A stretch of DNA of 44,520 nucleotides from a virus. Both the position numbers and the translations under genes were made by a program. The stretch lies in the UHGV virus genome UHGV-0202726; one strand, given 5' to 3'. Under the pieces are notes generated by a model. It saw only the letters and a list, made by a program, of their open reading frames with translations. It was not told the origin of the DNA and did no database searches. Shown here one piece after another: positions 1,225 to 40,282 of this stretch (position 1 is the stretch's first letter; each line of letters opens with the position of its first letter).

Positions 1225-1665
1225 TTATCCTAATAGTTGTTTGGTAATAATCTTGCCGCCGGTGTTAATGTCGAATTGAGAGGCTACAGTAATCGCGCGT
1301 GTTGCGGTTTCGCCCAAATACATAGCCGCTAACGCATAGGGCGAGCCGGACCCAACGGCGGCAAAGCTATCGGCGACAGGGATAACCGAACTAAGGGCAC
1401 AATCCCATGATTTATAAAACGCGACTTTATACACCTTTTCTGTGTCTTTCACGAACACCAGGGCTTCGAAATCGAAGTCATAGTGCTTTGCCCGAAGGAT
1501 ACCGGGGCAATCGATAAGCATAGCGCCTACCCCCGCATCACCCGCCACCCCGATAACAGCAAAATCATTCTCGTATATCTTAGTGCCAGTGTTGTAGCAG
1601 TTACTTCCGCACACAACACGCGTGTCGCAAGCCATTGTCTTTCCGTCAAACGCGATAGTAGTCAT
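1225..1665 (-). CDS. HslV/proteasome beta-type Ntn-hydrolase peptidase-like protein
   Basis: N-terminal MTTIA (Thr nucleophile after Met), central K...IGVAGDAG and AVGSGSPYALAA matching the HslV GSGG region as recalled from memory; GGAGA RBS; ATGA overlap with upstream gene. Confidence 0.6.
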   Translation of the reverse strand: MTTIAFDGKTMACDTRVVCGSNCYNTGTKIYENDFAVIGVAGDAGVGAMLIDCPGILRAKHYDFDFEALVFVKDTEKVYKVAFYKSWDCALSSVIPVADSFAAVGSGSPYALAAMYLGETATRAITVASQFDINTGGKIITKQLLG

Positions 1666-1955
1666 TTGTGTCTCCAGATGTATTGTCGTCTCTGCGGTTT
1701 CGTCGGAATATCATCGTATCCCAGAGATTTCCAGTAATTAAATAACCGGTTAGCGATAGCTGCACGTTCCTGTGTTTTGAACTCACCGAGATTTACGGCC
1801 TTCCCGTTCTGGAACCCACAGGCGCGGACAGCTTTGCGTCTGGCCTGAATCTCCGGGTACAGCGCGTTATGGCGGCGCTTGTGTATGCGCGTCTTAGCTC
1901 TCGGTGACAGCGGCTCAAGGCCTCTTCGTTTCAGGATGTCAGTTGCAAGGCTCAT
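1662..1955 (-). CDS. hypothetical basic protein, possible AP2-like DNA-binding fold
   Basis: ATG with GAGGG RBS; Arg/Lys rich; segment NLGEFKTQERAAIA resembles AP2-type DNA-binding domains (weak). Confidence 0.45.
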   Translation of the reverse strand: MSLATDILKRRGLEPLSPRAKTRIHKRRHNALYPEIQARRKAVRACGFQNGKAVNLGEFKTQERAAIANRLFNYWKSLGYDDIPTKPQRRQYIWRHK

Positions 1956-2170
1956 TTAACACCCTCAAGTATCTTACGAGCTAGTGATTCAGCATCGTCT
2001 GCACTTAATACAACACAACCGGTTTCGCTGTAAACCTGCAACTCTACAAGCCCACACTCGCCTTCATCGTCTTTATAAAATTGAATACAGCAGACATCCC
2101 CGTCTTTGTCTTCGAACTCGAACGTAGGACAATCCGGCGTTCTTAGGCTGCTACGGTCTCTGAATATCAT
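1952..2170 (-). CDS. hypothetical protein
   Basis: ATG at 2170 with GGAG RBS preferred over the track's upstream non-ATG start at 2218; stop overlaps next start. Confidence 0.4.
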   Translation of the reverse strand: MIFRDRSSLRTPDCPTFEFEDKDGDVCCIQFYKDDEGECGLVELQVYSETGCVVLSADDAESLARKILEGVK

Positions 2171-2443
2171 AATCACTCCACCCCTTCCACATGTGTAACC
2201 GACCCACAGTTCGCGCACTCGACGTAATCCGGGAACTGGTCTTTGTATTTCTGTAACTCGGCTTCGAGAGCCATTAAATCAGAGTACCGCACGCGCACAT
2301 ACTCGCCGCTATATCAGGCCTCCGGCGGCAGTGTACGCCAGTCGAATAGTTTAATCATCACCACGCCTCCATAGAGTAAAACGTTTCTGATGCCGCGAGG
2401 TGCATCTGGCCTGCGGACAGTACCCAGATAAAGAGGATGCTGG

Positions 2444-3136
2444 TCATAAGTTTATCACCCCGCATTTGGTACAACGCCGCCCGTTGGGGTAATAATATTC
2501 CCACTCATGTTTGCATTTCTGCGTATAGGCTTTCGGCTCATACTCCGGGTCATCCCACTCACGCGCACCGCATTCGCAGCAAAACAGACTACCGGGCACG
2601 TTGCCCTTGTGGCCTTCGGCGATAAACAATCCTGGAGCGATAAGCCAATTGTGGTCACATTCCTGGGTATCTTCTTTACGGCAACCGGATTTCTCAGTGC
2701 CAAGCGCACCTTTACGGATAAGTTTGTACGCCTCCACGTCACCGGTAGCCAGTCGTTTTACCAGGTCATCAACTTGCGCTTGAAAGCGCAACGCATCGCC
2801 GCGATATGCTGACGATTGCCCTGTCAGGTGCGATATGTGCTCAGATTTCTTAATGTTGTCTTCCCGCAACTCCTTAATCTGCGCCGACGCATCACGTAAC
2901 TGATTCTTAAGTGACTGCACCTCATGCGCCAGGTCTTCGCACTGTTGCTTGTACTGGTTGTGCTCCAGGCCGATGTAGGCATCGATTACGGCATTTTCCT
3001 CGTCGGTATAGTTACCGCGACCAGCAATACTACGGTCGATACTCCACCGTTTAATTTCACCCATTACATCTGCGACCGGTAGCTGCTGCCGTAGTTGGTC
3101 AATCAGGTACTCGAATACTTCGTTTTTGTTACTCAT
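2444..3136 (-). CDS. hypothetical coiled-coil protein with C-terminal Cys-rich zinc-ribbon-like region
   Basis: ATG at 3136 (MSNKNE...) with GGAGGA RBS and 8-nt overlap with upstream gene; C-terminal CCECG...CTKCG cysteine pairs. Confidence 0.5.
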   Translation of the reverse strand: MSNKNEVFEYLIDQLRQQLPVADVMGEIKRWSIDRSIAGRGNYTDEENAVIDAYIGLEHNQYKQQCEDLAHEVQSLKNQLRDASAQIKELREDNIKKSEHISHLTGQSSAYRGDALRFQAQVDDLVKRLATGDVEAYKLIRKGALGTEKSGCRKEDTQECDHNWLIAPGLFIAEGHKGNVPGSLFCCECGAREWDDPEYEPKAYTQKCKHEWEYYYPNGRRCTKCGVINL

Positions 3137-3347
3137 CTTCTGGTTCCTCCCCATTATATTCTTCGAACACAAAGTCATCGTCTGCGGATAGCGCCCATCG
3201 ACCATACCCCGCGTAGTAGACATCAAGTTCAGTGCCGTTGTCGTCTATTACGTAGCAGCGGCTCTCGTCGCCGTCTTCTTTGAGATGGTATAAGTCGTTT
3301 TTAGTCAGCACCCAATAGTCATCGTGGGATTTGCATTCCAGGAACAT
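3129..3347 (-). CDS. hypothetical acidic protein
   Basis: ATG with GAGGAGAGA RBS; first gene downstream of the promoter element at 3379-3408; acidic C-terminus. Confidence 0.5.
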   Translation of the reverse strand: MFLECKSHDDYWVLTKNDLYHLKEDGDESRCYVIDDNGTELDVYYAGYGRWALSADDDFVFEEYNGEEPEDE

Positions 3348-3378
3348 CTTCTGTCTCTCCTCTCGTCTGTGTAAATGA

Positions 3379-3408
3379 ATAGTAGCCTATTCTATTTCAG
3401 CGTGCAAG
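3379..3408 (-). promoter_or_regulatory. promoter, TTGCAC-N18-TACTAT class with palindromic GAATAG/CTATT core
   Basis: -35 TTGCAC (3408..3403), -10 TACTAT (3384..3379) on minus strand, about 35 nt upstream of the ATG at 3347; related to the elements at 5157-5185 and 27631-27659. Confidence 0.5.
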
Positions 3409-3414
3409 TAAATT

Positions 3415-3588
3415 TTATTGGTGTGTTATAGAGTCGATGAACGCCAGTAACGCGCGCTCCGCTTCTGCTTCTCTTTCCTCAAGTGACCAGGTAGCGGACT
3501 CCTCTGTTGCCGTTGCTAAATCGGTTTTTACATCAATCATCGTGTCAATTAACGTGATTAGTCGTTCGGCCTGTTCTTTAGTAATCAT
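3415..3588 (-). CDS. hypothetical small protein (57 aa, below ORF-track cutoff)
   Basis: ATG at 3588 with GGAGA RBS 7 nt upstream; fills the gap between terminator and promoter. Confidence 0.3.
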   Translation of the reverse strand: MITKEQAERLITLIDTMIDVKTDLATATEESATWSLEEREAEAERALLAFIDSITHQ

Positions 3589-3639
3589 TGTTGCATCTCC
3601 TGCAATAGTCTCTTCGATTGTTGCGTTTGGTGAAATAGA

Positions 3640-3679
3640 ACAAAAATGAGAAAAATGATACGCTGCTGTGTAGCAGCGT
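3640..3679 (-). terminator. rho-independent terminator
   Basis: Stem ACGCTGCT/AGCAGCGT with 4-nt loop followed on minus strand by TCATTTTTCTCATTTTTG. Confidence 0.6.
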
Positions 3680-3759
3680 AAGTCACTCAGTAAAATCCCA
3701 AACTATTGAACATCACACTTCCAGCGGCTCGGGTAACGGCATCCAGTGTGTTATACGTA

Positions 3760-4065
3760 TCAATCAGTCGCGTGTTTACGTACCCAGGCGATGCGTGCCG
3801 GATTTAGGTGGATTGTTCCATCATCGCACTCGACGTCATAGTTAGGTTCGCCGTGGTTAAACGGGTAGCCCGAATCTAACCCAGCGTTGGTAAACTGTGC
3901 TTTCAACTCCAGGCGCAGAGCGCGGAGGTTGTAACCTTTATCACCTGCCCACTTATGCAATGCGAAACATAGTCCGGTGCAACATGTGAATACGCCATTG
4001 TTAACCGCACCAGCATCGAGCCACGCAGCGTAGGCTTTATAAAATGCTTTAAGTTCTTCGCTCAT
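3760..4065 (-). CDS. hypothetical protein
   Basis: ATG with GAGG RBS; 101 aa; no recognisable domain. Confidence 0.5.
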   Translation of the reverse strand: MSEELKAFYKAYAAWLDAGAVNNGVFTCCTGLCFALHKWAGDKGYNLRALRLELKAQFTNAGLDSGYPFNHGEPNYDVECDDGTIHLNPARIAWVRKHATD

Positions 4066-4068
4066 ATC

Positions 4069-4212
4069 TCACCTCGTATTCATCGCATATTGCACACCAG
4101 CTTTCCACGCCCGCCACGCGAGACGTGTCTTAACGTTAAGGTACTCTTTCTTAGAACCCTTGTTAACCGGCAGACCCTCGACGACGGCCCACCGTTCAAA
4201 TGCTTCTCTCAT
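4069..4212 (-). CDS. hypothetical small protein (47 aa)
   Basis: ATG at 4212 with TAAGGA RBS; exactly fills the gap between 4216 and 4065. Confidence 0.3.
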   Translation of the reverse strand: MREAFERWAVVEGLPVNKGSKKEYLNVKTRLAWRAWKAGVQYAMNTR

Positions 4213-4215
4213 AAC

Positions 4216-4473
4216 TTAGTCCTTAACCTTTACCCAGAATTCACCACAATACCAGCACCACAAAAGATTAGGGGTCTCACGAACCCAACCATAATCCTTA
4301 CGTGCACGAATCGGGATAATGCCTTTAATGGAATAATAACCTGTCTGAAGAAACTCAGGGTCGCGCGTCGCAATGCGCCACATGTTATAGAACTGCTCCA
4401 GCCCCGCACCCCGACGCATGACCCGTATTTTACGGTTATATTCCGCTACTGTTTTCAGTTCAGTATTATTCAT
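4216..4473 (-). CDS. hypothetical protein
   Basis: ATG at 4473 shares TAATG overlap with upstream stop; GGGAGG RBS. Confidence 0.5.
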   Translation of the reverse strand: MNNTELKTVAEYNRKIRVMRRGAGLEQFYNMWRIATRDPEFLQTGYYSIKGIIPIRARKDYGWVRETPNLLWCWYCGEFWVKVKD

Positions 4474-4706
4474 TAACGGCAACCTCCCTCGGAGTCGTCG
4501 GCACGAGCATCATGATTCGATGCCGTTGTGTATATTTCCGCTTCGGCCTTAGTTACTGGCACTTTGTAATGCCTGACCTTAATCCACCAGCCGTACTCGC
4601 AGGAGTCCAGCACATCAAAAACATCGCCAATATTTACGCCTATGCTTTCCAGAGTATCGTTAGCTGTTTCATAGGTAACGGTGTTATCTGTAATTATGAT
4701 TTGCAT
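4473..4706 (-). CDS. hypothetical protein
   Basis: ATG at 4706 in TGATG overlap with upstream stop. Confidence 0.5.
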   Translation of the reverse strand: MQIIITDNTVTYETANDTLESIGVNIGDVFDVLDSCEYGWWIKVRHYKVPVTKAEAEIYTTASNHDARADDSEGGCR

Positions 4707-4885
4707 CACTTTGCCCCTTTGAATTTAAAATTGTTGCCGATGAGTGTTAGCTCGTACTCGTAAAACCACATATCAAAATCCCAGTACGGATTAGTCAAAA
4801 AATATCTCCCTGGTATTTTAGAACCTCGCACAATGACGCCGTACCCGCAGTCTTTCGTTTTAACCAACTGACCGTGCTTAAACAT
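4706..4885 (-). CDS. hypothetical protein
   Basis: ATG at 4885 with GAGGGG RBS preferred over track GTG at 4894. Confidence 0.45.
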   Translation of the reverse strand: MFKHGQLVKTKDCGYGVIVRGSKIPGRYFLTNPYWDFDMWFYEYELTLIGNNFKFKGAK

Positions 4886-4903
4886 AACCCTCACCCCTCT
4901 GTC

Positions 4904-5122
4904 TTATTTAAAGTAGATAGCGAATTTCTTGTAACCCGCAGGCTCGTTACGAAGCCCTTTACCGTTGGCGAAACGTTGTACGTTAATAAAATCATTTTCA
5001 TCCATTCCGTCGGTGTCGAACGTAAAGAAGTTTCGTTTGTTCCCGATGATTACTCGCTCTGAGATATCGATGCCGTAAACTTCTTTTATTGCGGAAACTA
5101 CGCTTGCGGTCGCTTTGTTCAT
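4904..5122 (-). CDS. hypothetical protein
   Basis: ATG with AAGGAA RBS; first gene of the leftward operon. Confidence 0.5.
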   Translation of the reverse strand: MNKATASVVSAIKEVYGIDISERVIIGNKRNFFTFDTDGMDENDFINVQRFANGKGLRNEPAGYKKFAIYFK

Positions 5123-5156
5123 TTCTAAATTCCTTATGTCTCGTTTCGATAAGTGA

Positions 5157-5185
5157 ATAGTATCCTATTATGTTGGGGTGTGCAA
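5157..5185 (-). promoter_or_regulatory. promoter, TTGCAC-N17-TACTAT class (leftward)
   Basis: -35 TTGCAC (5185..5180), 17-nt spacer, -10 TACTAT (5162..5157); 36-bp element 32/36 identical to the one at 27629-27664. Confidence 0.5.
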
Positions 5186-5560
5186 GAGAATAGTTACGTT
5201 GCCGTTGTGATTCGTTCGTTTCTTAAAAGAGTACGCAACGCAGTGGGTGGGCGTTAGCCCACCCCAGCGGAGTGAAGTACTCTCTACCTTGCTTACGGCA
5301 ACTATAGAAACTTTTAATTATCATATACTTAAGAGATATGCTGCCGATGAGAATAGAGCTTGCCCAGGGCAACCGGAGATACTAAGGAAGGAAAGTTACG
5401 ATAATTCTTATGTTCAGTAATCTGCCGCTTAACACTTCGCTGGCGCTGGTGCGCCGCTGCGTTTCAAGCGGGTATTACAAGGTGAACAGGAATCAAAGTA
5501 ACTAAGATATAGAAGCACCTTAAACGAAGATTTTCATAATGTCAATAGGTGCGATTATGT

Positions 5561-5589
5561 TTGATTTCCCATTATTCGCAATGTATACT
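5561..5589 (+). promoter_or_regulatory. sigma70-like promoter (rightward) for the HTH/replication operon
   Basis: TTGATT, 17-nt spacer, TATACT, about 30 nt upstream of the GAGGG RBS and ATG at 5622. Confidence 0.5.
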
Positions 5590-5621
5590 TGGTTTCGTTA
5601 ACTGATAATGAGGGTTTGAGA

Positions 5622-5792
5622 ATGACGCAGAATGAGGTAGCTGAGCGTATTGGGGTTACTCGTCGTACGCTTAATAACTGGTTAAAGAGTGGGAAGTTCC
5701 CTGATTGTTGTACCCGCATTATGGGCCGCCGGCAGCCAGGTACGTTTGACCCGGAGAAAGTGGAAGCGTGGATTAAGGAGAATGTAAAATGA
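5622..5792 (+). CDS. helix-turn-helix DNA-binding protein (AlpA/excisionase-like fold suggested)
   Basis: ATG at 5622 with GAGGG RBS preferred over track TTG at 5589; MTQNEVAERIGVTRRTLNNWLKSGKFP looks like an HTH. Confidence 0.55.
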   Translation: MTQNEVAERIGVTRRTLNNWLKSGKFPDCCTRIMGRRQPGTFDPEKVEAWIKENVK

Positions 5793-6022
5793 CCGAGTTC
5801 CAGTCCCGGGTATTTACGGCTGTCGTTTCGCTAACACGTAAAAAAGGGTCGTGCAGCGTTATGGACTTGCGTCGTAGTTATTTTAGGTACTATAGTTCCG
5901 CCATTATTGAAGGGTCGTTGAAGGTGCTGGTTAAATCTGGTGTCGTGAAAAATGTTGGTGGGAAATATAGTGCTGTTGCTGAAGTTCGCGGAATGACCGC
6001 TACTTTAGAAGACCTGGAATAA
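5789..6022 (+). CDS. hypothetical protein
   Basis: ATGA overlap with upstream stop; AAGGAG RBS. Confidence 0.5.
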   Translation: MTEFQSRVFTAVVSLTRKKGSCSVMDLRRSYFRYYSSAIIEGSLKVLVKSGVVKNVGGKYSAVAEVRGMTATLEDLE

Positions 6023-6080
6023 AAGAAAGCCCCGACGCGGTGAACGCCGAGGCCAAATTACTTGCTGAAGGAATTATAAT

Positions 6081-8348
6081 ATGTCCGATGTAATTTTATC
6101 CTACTCGTGGTCACGCCGCAACGCGCGAGCAGAGAAAAAGGATATAAACGTCAGAACCACACACACGGCAACACTGGACGACCTGAAAGCGTTAATCCAG
6201 CCGCTTGATGCTGTTCGTGATGGGATTAACCCGAAGACAGCGCCCGGCTATATCACCGCCGCGTGTGACTCTACACACAGCACCGTGAAAGACCCGGAAA
6301 CCGGTGACTTTAAGCAAGCGCGTAAAGGCTTTTTCTATCGCTGCGACGCATCTGTAAGCAAATCGTCGCTGGCGTATCTGGACTTCGACAGCGCAACGCC
6401 GGAAGAGTATCAGGAAGCGGTGCGTCTGGTTAAGCGAAGCCGCCGTGCGATGTGCCTCTATACCACGGCATCACATACCGACGAGTCCCCGCGCTTTCGC
6501 GTCGTCATGCCGCTGGCCCGTCCGGTTGAAGTCGGCGACATCATCCGTGTTCGTCATGGGTTGCTTGAGCACTTCTTCAAAGGCATGGGCGCGGACCGCA
6601 GCGGGTTCACTCTGTCGCAGCCGATGTACCTGCCGCCAGTTGGCTCTCATGTTATCTGGTCGCGCCGCAACGACCTGATTGACCCGGACGAATTACTGGA
6701 AGGCATCCCCGCCGTTGACGTTAGCAGCGCATCGGATTACCAGATACCAGAAGAACTGCGCACCGCGTTTACAGATGCGTTCGAAGCACTGGCGTTCGAG
6801 TACGGCGGCATCATGACACCGCGCGGCCTTAAGATGCCAGCTACACCGGAACACGCAGAGAACTACAGCGACCCGACGCCGCGCCCGGATGACTTTCTGC
6901 TGTGTTTCCCGCGAGAGGGGTACGAAGCGCCGAACGTAACCATGATTCACGACACCGACATTACGGCAACCGAAGGCATGTCGCCGAAAGAGGTGTGGAA
7001 ATACGCGTGCGATGCGACTGGTCTGCCGTTCAGTGAAGTAGCCGAGGCAATCGGCTGGGGTGCACGTGAATCTGTTTCATGCAGTCTCGACGACCTGGAA
7101 GACGACGAGGACTCAGAGGAGGACGAGTTACCAGAACCGGTAAAGGCTGATTTCGTCGTCGAAGGGTACATGCCGTCGGATTGTATCTGGGATATCGTCG
7201 GGGAATCTGGCACGTACAAATCGTTTTATACGCTGGGGATGATGTACCTCAGCGCCGCCGGATACCGGTTCGCGGGGGCGGACACCCAGCGTTGCCACCA
7301 TTTCTATATAGACGGTGAGGGCGGCGCGGCCACACGTACACGTATTGATGCGCTCGCGGCTAAATACGGCGTGGAGGGTAAAGATTATGTACATGTCATA
7401 GACATGGGTGAGGTCGGAAAACTTAAAAGCCTGATTAAGTTAATGCGCGAAACTGCTGGCGACGAGCCAATCGGCATGGTTGCGTTCGACACCCTTAACC
7501 AGACGCTGGCCCTGACGATTGATAAGTTCGACGAGAACAGCTCATCAACGGCAATCGGTATGGGTAAAGTTATCGCCATCCTGAAAGAAGTACGTGATGC
7601 GACTAAAGCCGCGGTAGGTGTTGTCCACCACACACCGAAGGGCGGAAAGAAAGCCCGTGGTAGTGGGGCGCTGTACGCTGGCGTCGACGTGGAACTGACA
7701 ATTGAACGCGCTACCGACCGTCAGATAAACGTATATCACTCGAAATTTAAGCACGGGCCACAACAGAAGACAGTTGGCATGGTTCTGGAGTCGGTACAGT
7801 TCCGTGAAGCCCCGCCGCCGAAAGAGTACCGTGCAGTTGAGTTCCTGGGTAGCACAGAGGAATACGGCACAATCGTAAACCTGGACCTGCCTGAGCCACA
7901 CAAGGCGCTTGTGCTGATGCCGTGGGGCTTCGAGCCGTTTAAGACTGACGAGGAGAAAGAGCGGGAAGAAGGACTGACGAAGGAAGGTAAAGAAAACGTA
8001 CGTAAAACCGTAGAGAACGCCGTCAACAGTTCAGAAGCCACGATACTGGCGGCGTTTGAACTGGCGGAAGGAACCTACAACGGCAACGAGGGCATCACGG
8101 TAGCCGCAGCGAATAAGCTCGCACAGTCCGACCCTAACGCAAAGGCGTTTAACTCCAAAGAAGCCATAGAACGCGGGAAGATTAAGAAAATGGTTGAGGC
8201 GGGGTATCTTGTGCCAGGGACCGACGAAAACAATCAGATAATACCAGGCCGTTACAGGCTGAATACCCGGATAACGGATAACAAGATTCCGAAGACACTA
8301 TACGAACCGAATGAAATGCTGGTGGTGACCGAGGATGATTTGGAATAA
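6081..8348 (+). CDS. replication protein, RecA-fold ATPase (putative primase/helicase)
   Basis: 755 aa; Walker A GESGTYKS, Walker B-like MVAFDTLNQ, HHTPKG motif in C-terminal half; GAAGGA RBS; large N-terminal domain of unknown type. Confidence 0.7.
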   Translation: MSDVILSYSWSRRNARAEKKDINVRTTHTATLDDLKALIQPLDAVRDGINPKTAPGYITAACDSTHSTVKDPETGDFKQARKGFFYRCDASVSKSSLAYLDFDSATPEEYQEAVRLVKRSRRAMCLYTTASHTDESPRFRVVMPLARPVEVGDIIRVRHGLLEHFFKGMGADRSGFTLSQPMYLPPVGSHVIWSRRNDLIDPDELLEGIPAVDVSSASDYQIPEELRTAFTDAFEALAFEYGGIMTPRGLKMPATPEHAENYSDPTPRPDDFLLCFPREGYEAPNVTMIHDTDITATEGMSPKEVWKYACDATGLPFSEVAEAIGWGARESVSCSLDDLEDDEDSEEDELPEPVKADFVVEGYMPSDCIWDIVGESGTYKSFYTLGMMYLSAAGYRFAGADTQRCHHFYIDGEGGAATRTRIDALAAKYGVEGKDYVHVIDMGEVGKLKSLIKLMRETAGDEPIGMVAFDTLNQTLALTIDKFDENSSSTAIGMGKVIAILKEVRDATKAAVGVVHHTPKGGKKARGSGALYAGVDVELTIERATDRQINVYHSKFKHGPQQKTVGMVLESVQFREAPPPKEYRAVEFLGSTEEYGTIVNLDLPEPHKALVLMPWGFEPFKTDEEKEREEGLTKEGKENVRKTVENAVNSSEATILAAFELAEGTYNGNEGITVAAANKLAQSDPNAKAFNSKEAIERGKIKKMVEAGYLVPGTDENNQIIPGRYRLNTRITDNKIPKTLYEPNEMLVVTEDDLE

Positions 8349-9706: not shown

Positions 9707-9975
9707 TTTACCAACTCTACCGCGCCGTAGACAGGCGAGATAACACAGAGGCGCTATGGTTATTGCGTGCGCCGTCAGAGGCACACCAGATGGAAGAGAT
9801 GGCGTACTTAGGCAAAGTACCGCGGCCTAAAGACATAGGCCGTCATGTGTCGCAGATTAAGCGCACGACTTTCGCCAAACCTGACTTTTATGTCTTTGAG
9901 TCGATGTATGGCTGGGCTATGCACTGCGAGCATAAGACACGGCATTTAATTGACCAGTGGGAGAGCAGGGCATGA
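9703..9975 (+). CDS. hypothetical protein
   Basis: ATGA overlap with upstream stop; GGGAGAAGG RBS. Confidence 0.5.
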   Translation: MIYQLYRAVDRRDNTEALWLLRAPSEAHQMEEMAYLGKVPRPKDIGRHVSQIKRTTFAKPDFYVFESMYGWAMHCEHKTRHLIDQWESRA

Positions 9976-11213
9976 TTCTAAAAGAACGCGGTGGCAATAA
10001 CGATGTACACGCATTACTATCACCGTCAGGCGCTAAAAAGTGGTTAACCTGCCCGGCTTCTCTGGCCTGTGAAAAAGATATTCCTAACACGTCCGGTAAA
10101 GCCGCGGTATTAGGTACGGCTATGCACACCATAGCTGAGGTACATCTCAACGCCTATATCCGCGGCACTGCGCTACCATTAGAGCGTGAAGTCGGTGCTT
10201 ACGTGCTGGACGAGGGTAAAGGCCAGATTAAGGCGCTAATCAGCCCGATGAAATGCGCGGTACTGATTACGGCTGACATGATTGAGCAGGTGCGCAAGTA
10301 CACAGACTACTGCAAAGCTGTTATCGATGTAGCGACTTACGCCAAACTCGAGATGCGTGTCAATCTTACTGAGGTATTGCATCCAGGCTACGAAGGCGTT
10401 GAGACATTCGGAACCGCCGACCTTGTTGCCGTTCAGGAACTGGCGAACACCGACGAGCACATGCTCATTATTGGCGACCTTAAAACTGGACGGCATCGTG
10501 TTGAAGCGAAAGAAAACAAGCAGCTTATGCTTTACGCTCTCGGTGTTTATCGCCGACTCAAGAGACGTTATAACATCACAGTTGTTCGCCTGGTCATCTT
10601 TCAGCCGTACGCGGGCGGTGCGTCGGAGTGGGACATCTCGGTTGAAGGTCTGGAACTGTTCGCTAAGTTTGCACAGAAACGCGCACTGTTAGCTCTTGAC
10701 GCGTATTACCGAGGCAAGAAGAACCTGAAAGCATCTGACTTCAAGCCGTCAGTAGACGGTTGTCAGTGGTGCCGGTTCTCGGAACAGTGTGCCGCGCGTA
10801 CAAAAACCGTTAACGCGGTGCTGGCGGAAGAACTTGAAGACGACTTTGCGCTGGAACTGACACCAGAGCAACTCGTAGCTGAGTATGAGAAGTTGCCATT
10901 GTTGCGCCAGCACATCGACAAGGTCGAGAAAGCGATGTCCGCCGCGTTGCATTCCGGTAAGAAAGTGCCGGGGTACAAGCTGGTTGAAGGTAAGATGGGC
11001 AATCGTGCGTGGAAGGATGCTGAGGCGGTATACGAGAAATACGGCTACAAGCTGACTAAAGACGTGCTCATGTCACCTACCGAAGCGGTTAAAGTCATAC
11101 CGGAGGAGGAGCTAAAAGACTTCATTACCCGTAAGCCTGGCGCACCATGTGTTGCAACGGCGGACGACAAGCGTCCTGAGTGGAATCAGGTAACAGAGGA
11201 GGATTTGGAATGA
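9972..11213 (+). CDS. PD-(D/E)XK nuclease, Cas4/RecB-like with Cys cluster
   Basis: ATG at 9972 (ATGA overlap, GGAGAG RBS) preferred over track GTG 9957; GDLKTG (D-x-K), QLMLYAL (QxxxY), N-terminal C and C-terminal CQWCRFSEQC consistent with a Cas4-type Fe-S cluster. Confidence 0.75.
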   Translation: MILKERGGNNDVHALLSPSGAKKWLTCPASLACEKDIPNTSGKAAVLGTAMHTIAEVHLNAYIRGTALPLEREVGAYVLDEGKGQIKALISPMKCAVLITADMIEQVRKYTDYCKAVIDVATYAKLEMRVNLTEVLHPGYEGVETFGTADLVAVQELANTDEHMLIIGDLKTGRHRVEAKENKQLMLYALGVYRRLKRRYNITVVRLVIFQPYAGGASEWDISVEGLELFAKFAQKRALLALDAYYRGKKNLKASDFKPSVDGCQWCRFSEQCAARTKTVNAVLAEELEDDFALELTPEQLVAEYEKLPLLRQHIDKVEKAMSAALHSGKKVPGYKLVEGKMGNRAWKDAEAVYEKYGYKLTKDVLMSPTEAVKVIPEEELKDFITRKPGAPCVATADDKRPEWNQVTEEDLE

Positions 11214-11472: not shown

Positions 11473-12099
11473 ATGGGACTGAAACTGAATCTGCGTAAAG
11501 TAAACACTGCATGGGTTAACGTATTCGAACGTGAAAAAGACCGTGAAAACGATGATGGCTCAATCACTAAAGGGCAGTACAGCGCGACTATTATCCTGCC
11601 GTCTGACCATGCTCAAATCGACGCGCTATACGACACTGTCTACGCTGTAGTTGAAGAAGCGTTGGGTGCAGCCGCTGCCGAGAAGTGGATGAAGTCCAAC
11701 TACGGCGAAGGTAAGCACATGGATAAATGCGCGATTAAAGACATTGCCGAGCGCGACAATCCGTTTGAAGACTTCCCGGAGGGCTTCTACTTCAAAGCGA
11801 AGGCACAGAAACAGCCGCTGATTGTAACCTCTAAAAAAGGTGAGACTCAGGTAGAACAGGACTTCAATGTAGACGGCGAACAGATTGAAGGCGAACAGGT
11901 TTACAGCGGCTGTGTGGCTAACGTAAGCGTTGAAATCTGGTTCAGCCAGAAATACAAAGTCCTCGGCGTTAACCTGCTGGCAATTAAGTACGTTGGTGAG
12001 GGTAAAGCATTCGGGGGCTCTAAAGTCGCCGCGAGTGTTGATGACCTGGAAGATGACGAAGAAGATGAAGCACCACGCCGCGAGCGTCGTCGCCGCTAA
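11473..12099 (+). CDS. putative single-stranded DNA-binding protein
   Basis: Follows strong promoter; GAGGAA RBS; acidic C-terminal tail DDLEDDEEDEA typical of SSBs; sits between nuclease and polymerase as in phage nuclease/SSB/PolA modules. Confidence 0.5.
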   Translation: MGLKLNLRKVNTAWVNVFEREKDRENDDGSITKGQYSATIILPSDHAQIDALYDTVYAVVEEALGAAAAEKWMKSNYGEGKHMDKCAIKDIAERDNPFEDFPEGFYFKAKAQKQPLIVTSKKGETQVEQDFNVDGEQIEGEQVYSGCVANVSVEIWFSQKYKVLGVNLLAIKYVGEGKAFGGSKVAASVDDLEDDEEDEAPRRERRRR

Positions 12100-14934: not shown

Positions 14935-15189
14935 ATGGCTATCGAACTTCAACTGTCAGTAAACACTATGATTATTGGTTCAATCGACTCATCTGTTCGT
15001 ATCGGTAAATACACAGGGGCGTCAGTTAATTACTCATGGTCTATGAAGGTTTCGGAAGTAAACCGTATCCTGGGTTTCGGGTCAGTTGGCCGCAAAGTGC
15101 TGGCAGAAGACGTCGCTAAAGGGCTGTCGGTAGACTTCACAACGGCTGGGGAACTTATTAAGCAAGTTCAAGCAGAATTATCTAACTAA
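14935..15189 (+). CDS. hypothetical protein
   Basis: ATG with AAGGA RBS. Confidence 0.5.
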   Translation: MAIELQLSVNTMIIGSIDSSVRIGKYTGASVNYSWSMKVSEVNRILGFGSVGRKVLAEDVAKGLSVDFTTAGELIKQVQAELSN

Positions 15190-15228: not shown

Positions 15229-15420
15229 ATGAAACACGAATATGACCGCAAACCAGCACGTGACATCGTACCGGGCGACATGATTTTCAACGTTAAGACC
15301 CGTCGTCCTGTTGCCGTTGATACGGTGTACGTCGAGTCGAACGGTAAACTGGTTATCGAAGATGTAACCGGCAATATTACGGCGTTCGGGCGTAAAGAGT
15401 TAGTTCTGGTGTTGAAATGA
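15229..15420 (+). CDS. hypothetical protein
   Basis: ATG with AAGGAA RBS. Confidence 0.5.
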   Translation: MKHEYDRKPARDIVPGDMIFNVKTRRPVAVDTVYVESNGKLVIEDVTGNITAFGRKELVLVLK

Positions 15421-16100
15421 TTGTCTGGTCATTATTTGACGGTTCGGGCCTTATGGCCCAGCCGTGGGCGGAAGCGGGCCATACTTGCTACTGTTTCAAC
15501 TACGACGGCGCTGACCACGGCGACTACGCACTATTGGGTGCAAAGGTTGAACACGAGAACATCCACTATATAAACGCGTGGATTGATAATAAATTCGACT
15601 TCGAAGCCGCGCCGGATATTATTTTTGCGTTCCCTCCTTGCACAGATTTAGCCGTTAGTGGGTCGCGTCATTTCGAGGCTAAGCGCAAGAAGAACCCAAC
15701 GTTTCAGGTAGAGGCCGTGATTACATGCAAAGTGGCAGCGCGTCTGGCTAAAAAGTACAACGTACCTTATATGATTGAGAACCCAGTTAGCGTTCTTTCA
15801 TCTTTATGGCGTAAGCCCGATTATGTATTCGACCCACACGATTACGGCGGCTATCTACCGGAAGACGACACACATCCAATGTTTCCGGATGTTATTCCAG
15901 CGCGAGATGCCTATGTTAAAAAGACGTGCCTGTGGGCGGGCAATGGGTTTGTTATGCCCGACGTTGCCGATGTTGCCGCGGGTAGTGGAGATAATCCGGG
16001 CTGGGCTAAACTGGGCGGCAAGAGCGCCAGAACAAAAACAATCCGCAGCCTCACCCCGCGAGGTTTCGCAAAAGCAGTTTACGAGGCTAATCATGTCTAA
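15417..16100 (+). CDS. DNA cytosine-5 methyltransferase-like protein, short form without obvious target-recognition domain
   Basis: LFDGSGLM (motif I-like), FPPCTDLAVSG (PC catalytic motif IV-like), MIENPVSV (ENV-like motif VI); only 227 aa; ATGA overlap with upstream gene. Confidence 0.55.
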   Translation: MIVWSLFDGSGLMAQPWAEAGHTCYCFNYDGADHGDYALLGAKVEHENIHYINAWIDNKFDFEAAPDIIFAFPPCTDLAVSGSRHFEAKRKKNPTFQVEAVITCKVAARLAKKYNVPYMIENPVSVLSSLWRKPDYVFDPHDYGGYLPEDDTHPMFPDVIPARDAYVKKTCLWAGNGFVMPDVADVAAGSGDNPGWAKLGGKSARTKTIRSLTPRGFAKAVYEANHV

Positions 16101-17517
16101 GTTTCAAAGGCGAGAGTACCAGAAGCTCATGACTTCGTTCATGCTGCGGCACCATCGCTGCAACATATGGGCAAGCATGGGTGCCGGGAAGACTGGCAGC
16201 GTACTGTGGGCTTTAAACCGACTGTTCCGCAACGGCCAACTTAATGATGACGACCGTGTGTTAATCCTTGCCCCGCTACGAGTTGCGTCCGGTACGTGGC
16301 CCGCAGAACAAGAGAAATGGCGGTTCCCGTGTCTGAATGTTGTAGACGCAACAGGTTCAGAGAAGCGCCGCATCGCGGCGCTGGAGTCTGACGCTAACGT
16401 GGTGTGCACCAACTACGAAGTTATCGAGTGGCTGATTGACTACTACGGCAAAGACGACTGGCCTTTTACGGTTATTGTCGCCGATGAAAGCACGAAGCTG
16501 AAATCATTCCGCAGCCGTTCAGGCGGTAGTAAGAGGGCGAAGGCGCTCAGTAAGGTTGCGTTCGGTAAGGTTAAGCGTTTCATCAACCTGACGGGTACGC
16601 CGTCGCCAAACGGACTAAAAGACTTGTGGGGGCAGAACTGGTTTATCGACGCGGGTGAGCGCCTCGGTTCTTCGTACACAGCGTTCACGGACCGCTGGTT
16701 TAACTCGGTACAGAAAGGTAAGTCGGCGATGGCGCGCGAATACCACGCCCGCCCTGGTGCGGATAATGAAATTCACCAGAAGATGAAGGACATCAGTCTC
16801 ACGATTGACGCCGCCGAGTGGTTCGGTTGCGAGGCGCCGATTATTGTACCGGTTGAAATCGACCTGCCGAAGAAAGCGCGTCAGGCATACATAGATATGG
16901 AGGAGAAGTTATTCGCGGAACTGGAGAGCGGAGAAGTTGAAGCGGCTAACGCCGCGGCGAAGACCTCAAAGTGCTTGCAGATCGCATCCGGTGCCGTGTA
17001 TGTATCAGGGCCGGATGGTGAAGCAACGAAAGACTGGGAGAAAGTGCACGACACGAAACTGGATGCACTCGAGTCAATTGTTGAGGAGCTACAGGGTGCG
17101 CCGTTACTGGTGGCGTATCAGTTCAAGCACGAACTGGAGCGCATCCTTAAGCGATTCCCTCAGGCCCAGGCATTTTCTAAAGGCGCTAAGGGTAATAAGC
17201 AGATGGACGCGTGGAACCGCGGGGAAATACCAATGCTCCTGATACACCCAGCCTCCGCAGGCCACGGACTGTCGCTACAACACGGCGGGCACCACATGGC
17301 CTTTATGAGTCAGGGGTGGAACCTTGAACATTATTTGCAGGTTATCGAGCGTATAGGCCCGGTAAGGCAGATGCAATCTGGATACAAACGGTCTGTATTC
17401 ATTTATCAAATAATAGCCAGAGATACTCTTGATGAAGTTGTCGCCGCGCGTACAGACGAGAAAAGGTCCGTACAGGACGAACTACTTAATTATATGAAGA
17501 GAAGGAGTAAGAAATGA
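16093..17517 (+). CDS. SNF2-family helicase
   Basis: ATG at 16093 (GAGG RBS, 8-nt overlap with upstream gene) preferred over track start 15775; MGAGKTG Walker A, ADESTKLK (DExx box), LTGTPSPN. Confidence 0.8.
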   Translation: MSKFQRREYQKLMTSFMLRHHRCNIWASMGAGKTGSVLWALNRLFRNGQLNDDDRVLILAPLRVASGTWPAEQEKWRFPCLNVVDATGSEKRRIAALESDANVVCTNYEVIEWLIDYYGKDDWPFTVIVADESTKLKSFRSRSGGSKRAKALSKVAFGKVKRFINLTGTPSPNGLKDLWGQNWFIDAGERLGSSYTAFTDRWFNSVQKGKSAMAREYHARPGADNEIHQKMKDISLTIDAAEWFGCEAPIIVPVEIDLPKKARQAYIDMEEKLFAELESGEVEAANAAAKTSKCLQIASGAVYVSGPDGEATKDWEKVHDTKLDALESIVEELQGAPLLVAYQFKHELERILKRFPQAQAFSKGAKGNKQMDAWNRGEIPMLLIHPASAGHGLSLQHGGHHMAFMSQGWNLEHYLQVIERIGPVRQMQSGYKRSVFIYQIIARDTLDEVVAARTDEKRSVQDELLNYMKRRSKK

Positions 17518-37676: not shown

Positions 37677-38752
37677 TAATCCCCTTTCAGATAATCAGCA
37701 ACACGTTTATCGAGTTCCGCCATCTGCTTAAGCGTGAGCGGATTCCCGAAACCATCTACAGATATTACGCGAAACTCTTCCGGCGATATACCGCTGTTGC
37801 GGAAAATCTTACCTCGCACCGGGCCGAGCGCCTGGTCCTGAAACCATGCGGGTTGTTGTTTCAGGAACTCGTAGTAAGTGGTGTCTGCGCTTACCTGAGT
37901 ACCGCCATCCGCACCCTTAGCCGCGCGTTTTGCACCTTTATCAAGGAAGTCGAACTCGGAACTGATTACCGGAGCCGTGCACGACCGGCAGTTCGGATGG
38001 GCGGGTGGCATCGGCCCTTTACCGATTTCCCACGTCATCCCGTCTCTGGCCCTGCAAATCGTACTGGTACGGCTGTCCAGCGTCGACACCCACTCGTACT
38101 TCTCGATGATGTCGTCGTTCTGGCGGTACGTCTCGTTACGTGCTTCGTTGGATACGTGAGACAGAGCGGTGCGGATTACCGTCGCAGCGTTTCGTTCTGA
38201 AATGTCCGCCAGTCCACCAGCGCCTACGACATTTTTAACAATCTGCCGTGTGGTTTGGCCTTGTACGAAACCCATCTTAACGCCAGTTACCAGGCGCGCG
38301 ACCTCCGTTTCACCCCAGCCAGACATCAGCTTCGTGAAATCAACAGGCTTGTCACTTAACGATAATGGCTGAAACTCGGCAGCGGCCCACACCTGTTCTG
38401 CGGTAGGCGTAACAAATTCCGCGTTAACGTTAGCCGTCAGCGTCTTTACGTTCCACTCAGCCTCATATGCCACCAGTTCCTTAAGGTCTTCTGTCAGTTT
38501 TGTTTGCCAGTCACCGGTAAGTCCTGCCAGTGCTTCTTCGAGGTCGCGTAACAGTTTATTCAGTCGCGCAGTGCTGCGACCGTCGTCACCGAATAGCAGA
38601 ACCTGCCGTTTGATTTCGTCTCGCATCTCCTGAATGAATGGTGTGAGGTCTTTCACTTCACCGGAAGCGGCTCGTTGTAGCCATATCTGGTGGCTTATTA
38701 GGGATGTAAGTAAGCTCATAGATAAACCCTGTGGTGCTAAAGTTAATAGCAT
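37676..38752 (-). CDS. head morphogenesis protein (Mu F / SPP1 gp7-like)
   Basis: 358 aa directly downstream of portal; PPAHPNCRSCTAP motif typical of the Mu F-like minor head protein family; alternative ATG at 38719. Confidence 0.7.
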   Translation of the reverse strand: MLLTLAPQGLSMSLLTSLISHQIWLQRAASGEVKDLTPFIQEMRDEIKRQVLLFGDDGRSTARLNKLLRDLEEALAGLTGDWQTKLTEDLKELVAYEAEWNVKTLTANVNAEFVTPTAEQVWAAAEFQPLSLSDKPVDFTKLMSGWGETEVARLVTGVKMGFVQGQTTRQIVKNVVGAGGLADISERNAATVIRTALSHVSNEARNETYRQNDDIIEKYEWVSTLDSRTSTICRARDGMTWEIGKGPMPPAHPNCRSCTAPVISSEFDFLDKGAKRAAKGADGGTQVSADTTYYEFLKQQPAWFQDQALGPVRGKIFRNSGISPEEFRVISVDGFGNPLTLKQMAELDKRVADYLKGD

Positions 38753-38760
38753 ACTATAAG

Positions 38761-38778
38761 AAAGCCCCTTTCGGGGCT
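38761..38778 (-). terminator. GC hairpin between portal and head morphogenesis genes (attenuator or processing site)
   Basis: AAAGCCCC-TTTC-GGGGCT; no strong U tract. Confidence 0.3.
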
Positions 38779-38788
38779 ATATGCGAAC

Positions 38789-40270
38789 TTACCGCTGAAT
38801 GGTATCTTGTTGCTGCGCCGACTGCGGAATCTCCCCCGCTACCTTGGTAACCGCGCCCATCGGCAGAGGTGCATCCTCGATAGCGTTCTGAATGTCCTCA
38901 TCCGTCCAGTCAGTTACACCCGCCTTACGCAACGCTGCGTAGTAAGCAGTAGCCGGTAACAGGCCTGCGTTAATGTCCGCCATCCACTGTGCACGGTCCT
39001 GAGCGGTCATAGGCTGCAGGAAGAACTCCATATTCAGCTTGAACTCAATCTCTGTGCCTTCACGTAGCCCTAGCATCGCAGCAACCCAGCGCAACGCATC
39101 TGTATACGCCATGCTTACGTTACGTGCGATTGTTGCCATAACGGACGTATCAGCGCCGCGTTGCAGCCGGGCCGATTCCGCGGTGATTTGCTGCGTCTGG
39201 GTGATAAGCTGCGCACCAATCTGGATGGCCTGATTCTCTTTGTCCAGCATATTCTGTTTGGCGAGGTTGTTCTCTCCCGCCTGAACCAGAAACGCATTGC
39301 CGCCGTAACCGATGTTATGGCCTGAGCGCGACCCCATGCGCACGCCGTGTGGGTTGGCTTCTGCCCACTGTTCCATGCTCATGTTCTCACCCGGGGCGAT
39401 GAACAGAGTGGGCTGGCCTACAACGAAGCTGGATTCCTCATTGTCCGCGCTGTTGCGGAAATGTCCGATATTAAGCTCAGCCAACGGCAGCAAAGGTGCG
39501 TCGTCGATGGTTGCATCGTTGTTGCTTGCGCCGATGAACGTGAACGGGATTTTGCCGCGCAACTGTTCGCCAAGTTCCGGGAAGATTTCTTTTACTTCAC
39601 CCTGTGCGCCACCTTCTGCATCGAAGCGGTAAATGCGCTGACGGTAGCGTCCATCAATAAGGTCAAGGACGCGATATTGCTCACCGAACTTTGTTTCGAA
39701 CTCTGCACCCGGTTCTGAGTATTCCCACACCTCACGCAGCACTACCATTGTCACGCGGTTAACCGAACCGATACGGGTCAGTCGCCAGTTGATGATGTTC
39801 TCCGCGGTATAGAACGCGATGACCGGGTTTAATAAACCGGCGTTCTGTTCAGCTGCCGTCGCCGCAGCCGTCTCCGGGGCGTCCACCAGCAACCCACCAC
39901 GCCCTACCGAGTCAATCTCCATCAACGTGTCCTGCGCGTGCTGCCACAGCCCGACGCCAGAACCGTCAGCGTTGCGTAACAGGTACTCCAGTTCAGGTGG
40001 AATGATCTGTTCCGGGTCTTTGCGCATGACACTGCCAACCATCCCCGCCAGGGTGCGTTTAGTGAAGTTGTAGCAGATAGCCCCGTTCTCGTATTCTTCC
40101 TGGCGCTGTGCCGCGTAGGCCGGGTCTGGTTCGTTCTTCCCGACATTTCGAAGATAGCGAATAAGGTCGCCTTCCAGTGCGTGGCGTACCTTCTGCCATT
40201 TATCGAAGTGATGCAGCCATTCCCGGTGTTTTGTCTTAACACCCTGATTCTGACCGTTCATAGTTAACAT
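38789..40270 (-). CDS. portal protein
   Basis: 493 aa immediately downstream of the terminase large subunit. Confidence 0.75.
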   Translation of the reverse strand: MLTMNGQNQGVKTKHREWLHHFDKWQKVRHALEGDLIRYLRNVGKNEPDPAYAAQRQEEYENGAICYNFTKRTLAGMVGSVMRKDPEQIIPPELEYLLRNADGSGVGLWQHAQDTLMEIDSVGRGGLLVDAPETAAATAAEQNAGLLNPVIAFYTAENIINWRLTRIGSVNRVTMVVLREVWEYSEPGAEFETKFGEQYRVLDLIDGRYRQRIYRFDAEGGAQGEVKEIFPELGEQLRGKIPFTFIGASNNDATIDDAPLLPLAELNIGHFRNSADNEESSFVVGQPTLFIAPGENMSMEQWAEANPHGVRMGSRSGHNIGYGGNAFLVQAGENNLAKQNMLDKENQAIQIGAQLITQTQQITAESARLQRGADTSVMATIARNVSMAYTDALRWVAAMLGLREGTEIEFKLNMEFFLQPMTAQDRAQWMADINAGLLPATAYYAALRKAGVTDWTDEDIQNAIEDAPLPMGAVTKVAGEIPQSAQQQDTIQR

Positions 40271-40282
40271 TGAATAATCCTC

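Follow-up and report, generated by a model that had tools for sequence, protein, structure and literature searches.

The window analysed here is the whole 44,520-nucleotide stretch of UHGV virus genome UHGV-0202726, which is a Kagunavirus (Guernseyvirinae) phage. The gene of interest is an ATG-initiated open reading frame (ORF) of 227 amino acids on the plus strand at 15417..16100, the stop codon being counted in these coordinates, and it is located between two small ORFs and an SNF2-family helicase gene (Table 1). The length of the protein and its single-domain architecture are those of the short phage Dcm-like family, whose members are ~225-240 amino acids long. The gene product is very probably an active, stand-alone DNA cytosine-C5 methyltransferase that depends on S-adenosylmethionine (SAM) and belongs to this family, PHROG 757. 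This reading is grounded in the predicted fold, in conserved motifs, in evidence of purifying selection and in homology to a tested enzyme, and from these we infer the activity of this particular protein, its target and the role of a variable cassette near its C-terminus. An earlier note on this DNA had pointed to the 227-residue ORF and to the strings FDGSGL, FPPCTDLAVSG and IENP, all of which were recovered in place, and had left several roles for the product side by side: a minimal C5-cytosine DNA-modifying enzyme acting by methylation or by other C5 chemistry, a nucleotide-level enzyme, or a decayed gene.

Table 1. Features of the methyltransferase locus; positions refer to the window unless another phage is named.
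Feature	Position	Strand	Basis
Short Dcm-like C5-cytosine DNA methyltransferase, predicted coding sequence	15417..16100	+	ORF list; PHROG 757; homology to Jersey gp37 and Bas06; C5-methyltransferase fold; dN/dS
Motif I, F7-D-G-S-G11, predicted SAM-binding loop after strand 1	15435..15449	+	Aligned with SLFDG of DNMT3B, with M.HhaI and with PF00145 from profile position 3
Motif IV, FPPCTDLAVSG, residues 72-82	15630..15662	+	Alignment with PC in DNMT3B and M.HhaI
Motif VI, IENP, residues 120-123, ENV-type with predicted catalytic Glu121	15774..15785	+	Conservation; equivalent to E128 of K42/Bas06 Dcm
Conserved insertion of ~31 residues, 139-169 (DYGG...PARDAYVKK), between the motif VII and motif VIII strands	15831..15923	+	AlphaFold2 strands 136-138 and 170-175
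Variable cassette, residues 155-200, candidate mini-target recognition domain; core hypervariable loop 181-200 (DNPGW variant)	15879..16016	+	Column entropy; covariation of variants
Motif VIII equivalent, Y166-V-K-K-T-C-L-W-A-G175	15912..15941	+	Y166, K168, T170 and W173 at least 95% conserved
Motif X-like C-terminal segment, I209-RSLTPRGFAKAVYEAN-225, terminal helix of the Rossmann domain	16041..16091	+	39-sequence alignment (A1); AlphaFold2
Upstream 63-residue ORF, stop overlapping the methyltransferase start (ATGA, 15417-15420)	15229..15420	+	ORF list; homologous small ORF annotated in SZH-1 and Jersey
SNF2-family helicase gene, 474 residues	16093..17517	+	PF00176 SNF2-rel_dom, score 49.5 bits, cut-off 24.9; same frame as ORF 15775..17517
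Chance open extension of the helicase frame, TTG-initiated, 106 codons, non-coding	15775..16092	+	Frame open for just 21 codons in SZH-1 and 26 in Jersey
Proximity of short methyltransferase and helicase genes in other phages	Dhillonvirus PNS1 (L006), 1580-3696; Vequintavirus nimi (L007), 2965-5797; Bas06 (L004), 37759-40797; Webervirus (L009), 2989-6268		

Family membership, distribution and selection

A profile search assigns residues 1-226 of the protein to PHROG 757, 'DNA methyltransferase', with E = 5e-86. The family is large, with 6,636 homologues at E ≤ 1e-3, the best 120 of which are all 215-260 amino acids long. At 50% identity there are 2,080 clusters, 949 of them with E ≤ 1e-10, and the cluster representatives are nearly all 200-260 amino acids long. 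Matches by tblastn were found in 1,528 phage records, and these include Guernseyvirinae, Drexlerviridae, Dhillonvirus, Vequintavirinae, Stephanstirmvirinae, Casjensviridae and records named as Campylobacter phages. The gene is already annotated as Dcm or as a DNA cytosine methyltransferase in related phages, and the family is known and partly characterised. Salmonella phage Jersey gp37, which has 95% protein identity to the window protein, is annotated as 'C-5 cytosine-specific DNA methylase; similar to Dcm of phage TLS'. Jersey also features the same gene order of VRR-NUC, small ORFs, methyltransferase and SNF2 helicase, with an identical 8-nucleotide overlap between the last two genes. Both gp37 and the phage TLS 'Dcm' that its annotation cites are known from annotation only.

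Rare family members are longer, and most of their extra parts are without a Pfam domain; the N-terminal extensions of 170-200 residues in P0237, P0258 and P0259, for example, gave no Pfam match. Two natural fusions were found. In P0252 (563 residues) the short C5-methyltransferase domain is fused to a C-terminal D12-class (Dam-type) N6-adenine DNA methyltransferase (PF02086, E = 2.5e-48), and in P0263 (348 residues) it is fused to an HNH_2 endonuclease domain. The P0252 fusion supports DNA as the substrate of the short domain.

The possibility that the gene is decayed, or that its product is a catalytically dead remnant of a longer methyltransferase, would fit a protein that is ~100 residues short of canonical enzymes and scores below the Pfam threshold. 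However, the ratio of nonsynonymous to synonymous substitution rates (dN/dS) is 0.065 against the Jersey gene and 0.13 against the gene of Escherichia phage SZH-1, and thousands of full-length homologues of equal length exist. The gene is therefore under purifying selection and decay is excluded on these grounds. Additionally, at least 95% of the 222 aligned sequences keep the catalytic residues, the predicted fold is confident and complete, and a homologue of the same length, the Dcm of phage K42, is active, so that a dead remnant has only the slightest of chances.

Catalytic motifs and predicted fold

The protein features the motifs expected of the catalytic half of a C5-methyltransferase. 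FDGSGL occupies residues 7-12 (nucleotides 15435-15452), and G9, S10 and G11 of motif I are invariant in an alignment of 39 family sequences (A1). The dipeptide P74-C75 is the Pro-Cys of motif IV, in which Cys75 (codon 15639-15641) is the predicted catalytic nucleophile. The ENP of motif VI lies on a predicted strand comprising residues 118-123 in the AlphaFold2 model. In a wider alignment of 222 sequences, conservation reaches at least 95% at each of P73, C75, E121, N122, P123, R132, Y166, K168, T170, W173, R210 and G216. The earlier note had considered that the candidate catalytic Cys and Glu might prove to lie outside a methyltransferase context; they are found in PC and ENV-type motifs that are conserved in at least 95% of the 222 sequences.

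Sequence comparison with enzymes of solved structure is less informative than the predicted fold. A phmmer search of the protein against the PDB gave a single, spurious match to a glutathione S-transferase (E = 0.52), and a family profile searched against the PDB reached DNMT3B at E = 0.16 over motifs I-IV alone. Alignment of the family profile by hhalign with the single verified M.HhaI sequence gave a probability below 1%, again over motifs I-IV alone. The AlphaFold2 model, which was built on 39 homologues, has a mean predicted local distance difference test score (pLDDT) of 88.1 and a predicted template modelling score (pTM) of 0.87, and its strands are predicted to follow the seven-strand order of class I methyltransferases. 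Foldseek searches with the model gave DNMT3A, DNMT3B and DNMT3C as top matches (E ~2e-7, probability 1.00) and M.HaeIII at E = 5.7e-6. Two fold searches of the model agree that it is a class I Rossmann methyltransferase fold that is nearest to the catalytic domains of C5-methyltransferases.

The likeness to the DNMT3 enzymes is structural, with 12-18% identity to the catalytic domains of DNMT3A and DNMT3B. These domains are ~285 residues long, so the phage enzyme is ~60 residues shorter; they keep a target recognition domain (TRD) loop and motif IX, and they act at CpG as a tetramer assisted by DNMT3L. The phage enzyme also has Lys where motif VIII of DNMT3 has Arg. With M.HhaI, M.HaeIII and E. 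coli Dcm, which represent PF00145, the phage protein shares the fold of the catalytic domain, motifs I, IV and VI and presumed covalent catalysis. It differs from them in that it is without a separate small domain or TRD and without motif IX, in that its motifs VIII and X are non-canonical, and in that it features a 31-residue insertion between motifs VII and VIII.

The experimentally studied homologue from phages K42 and Bas06

The experimental anchor for the family is the Dcm of Drexlerviridae phage K42, which has 95.4% identity with KarlJaspers/Bas06 and was studied by Wang et al. (bioRxiv 10.1101/2023.08.16.553469; listed by PMC12916289 as Cell Rep 43:114857 (2024)). By BLASTP, the window protein has 63% identity over its full length to the product of Bas06 gene bas06_0055 (E = 8e-108). 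This gene, annotated as 'Dcm-like C5 cytosine methyltransferase' in MZ501090, is 711 bp long and encodes 236 amino acids, and translation verified C82, E128, K175 and K176. All four residues are conserved in the window protein, where they correspond to C75, E121, K167 and K168.

Wang et al. found that K42 escapers of retron Ec86 (Eco1) all map to the 711-bp dcm gene. Expressed alone from a plasmid, K42 Dcm was toxic only together with the retron; it methylated the multicopy single-stranded DNA (msDNA) of the retron and triggered the defence. Liquid chromatography coupled to mass spectrometry (LC-MS) with a 5-methylcytosine (5mC) standard detected 5mC on msDNA with the wild-type enzyme and none with the C82A/E128A/K175A/K176A mutant. 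In this mutant, Dcm-mut, K175 and K176 were changed after they had been picked as substrate-binding residues by superposition on DNMT3A. Additionally, changing the CCTGG site of msDNA to AATGG, ACTGG or CATGG abolished Ec86 defence against K42 (bioRxiv 10.1101/2023.08.16.553469).

The full-length identity of 63% and the four conserved residues place the window gene in a family with demonstrated DNA C5-methylating activity. The two proteins are alike in length (236 and 227 residues), in architecture and in their DNPGW loop, and both are encoded in early or replication regions of phage genomes. They differ in that one comes from a Drexlerviridae phage and the other from a Guernseyvirinae phage, in 37% of their residues, and in that the window copy is known from its sequence. 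The suggestion of a minimal C5-cytosine DNA-modifying enzyme acting by methylation is thus borne out by the fold, by the conserved Cys and Glu and by a homologue that makes 5mC.

The same data bear on a non-DNA substrate, whether RNA, as for the Dnmt2-like tRNA enzymes, or a free nucleotide. The tested homologue has a DNA substrate, the msDNA stem-loop, DNA enzymes outscore Dnmt2 in both fold searches, and the natural fusion with a Dam-type DNA methyltransferase points the same way. Modification of pyrimidine C5 at the dCMP level in phages is known to use enzymes of the thymidylate synthase family, which have another fold. Nothing was found in favour of the nucleotide-level enzyme that the earlier note had listed, and a non-DNA enzyme of either kind is highly improbable.

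Other C5 chemistry was also considered, in which the C5-methyltransferase fold would serve another transfer, such as carboxymethylation with carboxy-S-adenosylmethionine (Cx-SAM) supplied by host CmoA. The known case is CmoX (PDB 8yf3; PMC12783734), a phage DNA cytosine C5-carboxymethyltransferase linked to phage cmoA and cmoY, which binds the carboxylate of Cx-SAM via Arg350 in place of Asn304 of HhaI. The window protein has Arg210 and Arg215 in its motif-X-like segment, either of which might or might not occupy the HhaI Asn304 position. DNMT3A, however, is a methyltransferase and also has Arg at the motif X place (GRSWSVP). CmoX is a full-length, Cx-SAM-dependent enzyme with a TRD, comprising 333 residues in the solved chain, whereas the 63%-identical homologue of the window protein yields 5mC by LC-MS. 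No cmoA or cmoY-type ligase gene is evident among the neighbours examined. This chemistry is without support and is very unlikely.

Anatomy of the shortened C-terminal half

The motif VIII to X equivalences described here were drawn from the order of secondary structure, the 39-sequence family alignment, comparison by eye and the published DNMT3A superposition. The insertion between the motif VII and motif VIII strands begins with DYGG, which echoes the canonical DYG, and its length across the 222 sequences is 12-43 residues with a median of 31. Conservation is at least 95% at four of its positions, P140, D164, Y166 and K168. The M.HhaI counterpart appears to be ~10 residues long (LDYGIPQKRERIYMICF; LDYGIPQKRE), as judged by eye against the verified HhaI sequence. 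In the motif VIII equivalent that follows, K167 and K168 align by BLASTP with K175 and K176 of K42 Dcm.

Between motif VIII and the terminal helix there are ~40 residues (176-213), which are predicted to form a loop and two short helices and have the lowest pLDDT of the AlphaFold2 model. The TRD or small domain of C5-methyltransferases usually comprises 90-140 residues. The distance from R165 to N304 in HhaI is ~139 residues, compared with ~42 from the motif VIII equivalent to that of motif X in the phage protein. The protein had been described as shorter than canonical enzymes, and it is indeed ~100 residues shorter than M.HhaI (327 residues), the loss falling between motif VIII and the C-terminus.

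The C-terminal segment IRSLTPRGFAKAVYEAN (residues 209-225) is conserved, and residues 215-225 are predicted to form a helix with pLDDT 90-95. The 39-sequence alignment shows no variation at I209, R210, S211, L212, T213, R215 and G216, and the invariant IRSLTPRG precedes the terminal helix. By eye, against the verified sequence, the segment seems to resemble the C-terminus of DNMT3A, ...ARQRLLGRSWSVPVIRHLF (GRSWSVPV). The description of the protein as one without a TRD and without motifs IX-X therefore needs to be divided: the TRD and motif IX are effectively missing, and a conserved segment with a predicted, motif-X-like helix is present at residues 209-225. On the predicted structure, the enzyme is effectively a Rossmann catalytic domain alone that has kept a motif-X-like element.

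Evidence against the assignment and the target sequence

Several observations weigh against an active DNA C5-methyltransferase, or against its being isospecific with host Dcm. The match to PF00145, at 19.4 bits, falls below the gathering score of 22 (E = 8e-4) and covers profile positions 3-98 of 324, that is motifs I-IV alone. An NCBIfam search of the protein gave no match. The canonical QxRxR of motif VIII is not matched, as Y166-V-K167-K168-T-C has lysines for arginines; the motif-X-like segment IRSLTPRGFAKAV is without the canonical GN dipeptide; and the family alignment contains neither a canonical TRD or small domain nor a motif IX (RE) signature. A literature search found no experiments on the window protein or on any Guernseyvirinae copy. 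Regarding the target, the CCWGG specificity of K42 Dcm was assumed by Wang et al. from E. coli Dcm and tested indirectly, and the site mutations in msDNA might just as well act by disturbing the binding of the effector. Additionally, msDNA from dcm+ MG1655 with an empty vector carried little 5mC (bioRxiv 10.1101/2023.08.16.553469), which leaves it in doubt that the phage enzyme is isospecific with host Dcm. Lastly, CCWGG is mildly under-represented in the window, with 86 sites and an observed/expected ratio (O/E) of 0.73.

Of 39 family members, 9 match PF00145 at E ≤ 0.01. The profile and structure searches proposed in the earlier note gave a PF00145 score below the gathering score, but the modelled fold is that of a C5-methyltransferase by Foldseek. 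The literature on Kagunavirus, Jerseyvirus, Jerseyvirinae, Guernseyvirinae, Drexlerviridae and BASEL methylomes yielded annotation-level mentions alone, apart from the retron Ec86 work.

CCWGG as the target of the window enzyme is thus a working assumption that is carried over from E. coli Dcm and is not proven. An active DNA C5-methyltransferase with another target is a serious alternative, though one with chances somewhat below even. Such an enzyme could recognise a shorter or degenerate motif or could prefer hairpin or replicating DNA, and the DNPGW and YSxQ loop variants may differ in specificity. This alternative is consistent with a TRD-holding region of just ~40 residues and with a hypervariable cassette that is swapped between close relatives, as TRDs are. 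The poor methylation of msDNA in dcm+ MG1655 without the phage enzyme suggests that the phage enzyme does something that host Dcm does not, and the BASEL work found no simple link between Drexlerviridae methyltransferase genes and resistance to restriction. However, all three of the CCTGG-site changes in msDNA abolished Ec86 defence, and Bas06 shows no avoidance of CCWGG yet avoids CCSGG; both points favour CCWGG and are indirect for specificity.

Site counts were compared under a maximal-order Markov model. In Bas06, which has both Dam-like and Dcm-like genes, O/E is 1.00 for GATC, 1.03 for CCWGG and 0.17 for CCSGG. The window avoids GATC to an extreme degree, with 12 sites against 154 expected (O/E 0.08), and no homologue of a Dam-type methyltransferase was found in it by tblastn. 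Other avoided palindromes in the window are AAGCTT (0 against 10 expected), GGTACC (1 against 10.3), GGCGCC (2 against 16.8) and CAGCTG (2 against 13.2), and CTAG occurs 19 times against 68 expected. As support for CCWGG specificity these counts, together with the 86 CCWGG sites that the window retains, are circumstantial.

The variable cassette as a candidate mini-TRD

The most variable part of the protein follows motif VIII. Residues 181-200 have the highest column entropy in the family, and the length of this loop ranges from 7 to 70 residues among the 222 sequences. Model confidence is lowest at residues 191-210, where pLDDT is 63-77. The loop varies together with the end of the insertion: among the closer homologues, IPARD(..KK) occurs with DNPGW in 60 sequences and YPKK occurs with YSxQ in 56, and there are just 2 cross combinations.

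A mosaic pattern is found at the same residues. P0035-P0037 share 92% of residues 1-154 and 89-96% of residues 201-227 with the window protein, compared with 57-59% over residues 155-200. Within residues 155-200 the window protein is nearer to Bas06 (65%), and the DNPGW loop variant is common to the window protein and the Bas06/K42 type. By analogy, this mosaic suggests a recombinational swap of a specificity cassette, as in the TRD exchange of larger methyltransferases. It is this resemblance that leads to the proposal that residues 155-200 are possibly a mini-TRD.

A broader hypothesis can be put forward tentatively, as one that may well not hold. The short Dcm-like enzymes would be the smallest working C5-cytosine DNA methyltransferases, and they would read their target without a TRD domain by means of a cassette of ~45 residues (155-200) that consists of the end of the insertion and the hypervariable loop. 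Phage recombination would swap this cassette to alter specificity, so that the DNPGW, YSxQ and longer loop variants would correspond to different motifs, and DNMT3-like dimerisation might be needed for DNA binding.

Genome context and neighbouring genes

The 3.1 kb around the methyltransferase gene have 88-90% nucleotide identity to Kagunavirus isolates and to Escherichia phage SZH-1 (Guernseyvirinae). The gene order in SZH-1 is that of the window, namely DNA polymerase, small ORFs, VRR-NUC, two small ORFs, 'DNA cytosine methyltransferase' and 'DNA helicase', followed by the tailspike gene on the other strand. The two small ORFs between VRR-NUC and the methyltransferase gene, at 14935-15189 (84 residues) and 15229-15420 (63 residues), keep their position in SZH-1 and Jersey, and neither product gave a Pfam match. 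The 63-residue ORF is translationally coupled to the methyltransferase gene through its ATGA. Further upstream in the replication module, a gene at 9957-11213 encodes a 418-residue protein with a full-length DUF2800 match (E = 1.2e-67) and a PD-(D/E)XK nuclease domain, and downstream of it is the gene for an Enc34-type single-stranded DNA-binding protein (11473-12099).

The methyltransferase stop and the helicase start overlap by 8 nucleotides (16093-16100, ATGTCTAA). The helicase frame is open for a further 106 codons upstream of this ATG, in agreement with the ~100 codons reported earlier, and a long overlapping gene in this region was considered and rejected. The equivalent frame is open for just 21 codons in SZH-1 and 26 in Jersey, and the records of both phages annotate the helicase from the ATG equivalent to 16093, so the long overlap reflects a frame that is open by chance. 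As a gene overlap it is an unconserved artefact, and the 8 nucleotides are the real overlap.

In several unrelated phage lineages the short methyltransferase gene adjoins a helicase gene or lies within ~1 kb of it, on either side (Table 1). No helicase gene lies near the short methyltransferase gene in Phapecoctavirus ESCO5 (L008) or in Serratia phage JS26 (L010). In Escherichia phage ESCO5 (Phapecoctavirus), a gene for a 'putative Sir2-like protein' (L008, 4833-5633) lies ~1.2 kb downstream of the short methyltransferase gene.

In eukaryotic DNMT5 the methyltransferase domain depends on a fused SNF2 domain, and the truncated phage enzyme could similarly rely on the adjacent SNF2 ATPase for access to DNA or for base flipping. 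However, plasmid-borne K42 Dcm sufficed by itself to methylate msDNA and to set off the retron, and the linkage is absent from ESCO5 and JS26. The neighbour in nimi is annotated as a primase/helicase and is not obviously the same protein. A shared position in the replication module accounts for the linkage, and the proximity of the two genes is probably replication-module synteny. Dependence on the SNF2 protein is accordingly very unlikely.

Proposed mechanism and biological implications

As a DNA cytosine-C5 methyltransferase, the window protein would use the chemistry of M.HhaI, which is the established covalent mechanism of the family. The target cytosine would be flipped out of the helix, Cys75 would attack C6 and Glu121 would protonate N3. 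The FDGSG loop would hold SAM, the methyl group would be moved to C5, and beta-elimination would free the enzyme. Lys167 and Lys168 on the motif VIII strand may stand in for the canonical arginines. With the TRD or small domain cut to ~40 residues, DNA recognition would have to come from the conserved 31-residue insertion and the hypervariable loop after motif VIII, which together would contribute the swappable cassette at residues 155-200.

In the infected cell, the gene would be expressed along with those for replication, and its translation would be coupled to that of its neighbours. The enzyme would methylate phage DNA as it replicates and, incidentally, the DNA of the host. CCWGG-like sites are the most probable targets, and this methylation would protect the phage from m5C-sensitive restriction. 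The same activity may be a liability. In hosts with retron Ec86 (Eco1), which is carried for example by E. coli BL21, methylation of the msDNA stem-loop would switch on the abortive-infection effector, as with the K42 homologue.

These results leave the annotation of the genome as it was, since related phages already carry the gene under the name Dcm or DNA cytosine methyltransferase. DNA of the window phage is expected to carry 5mC, which would affect restriction mapping, cloning and nanopore basecalling. Additionally, the prediction for this Kagunavirus is sensitivity to retron Ec86/Eco1 and escape from it by loss of the gene, which matters for host-range prediction and for the design of phage-therapy cocktails. 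The point of scientific interest is how a 227-residue enzyme with almost no TRD chooses its target. If residues 155-200 set specificity, the family would be a compact scaffold for C5-methyltransferase engineering and a clean model of minimal DNA recognition.

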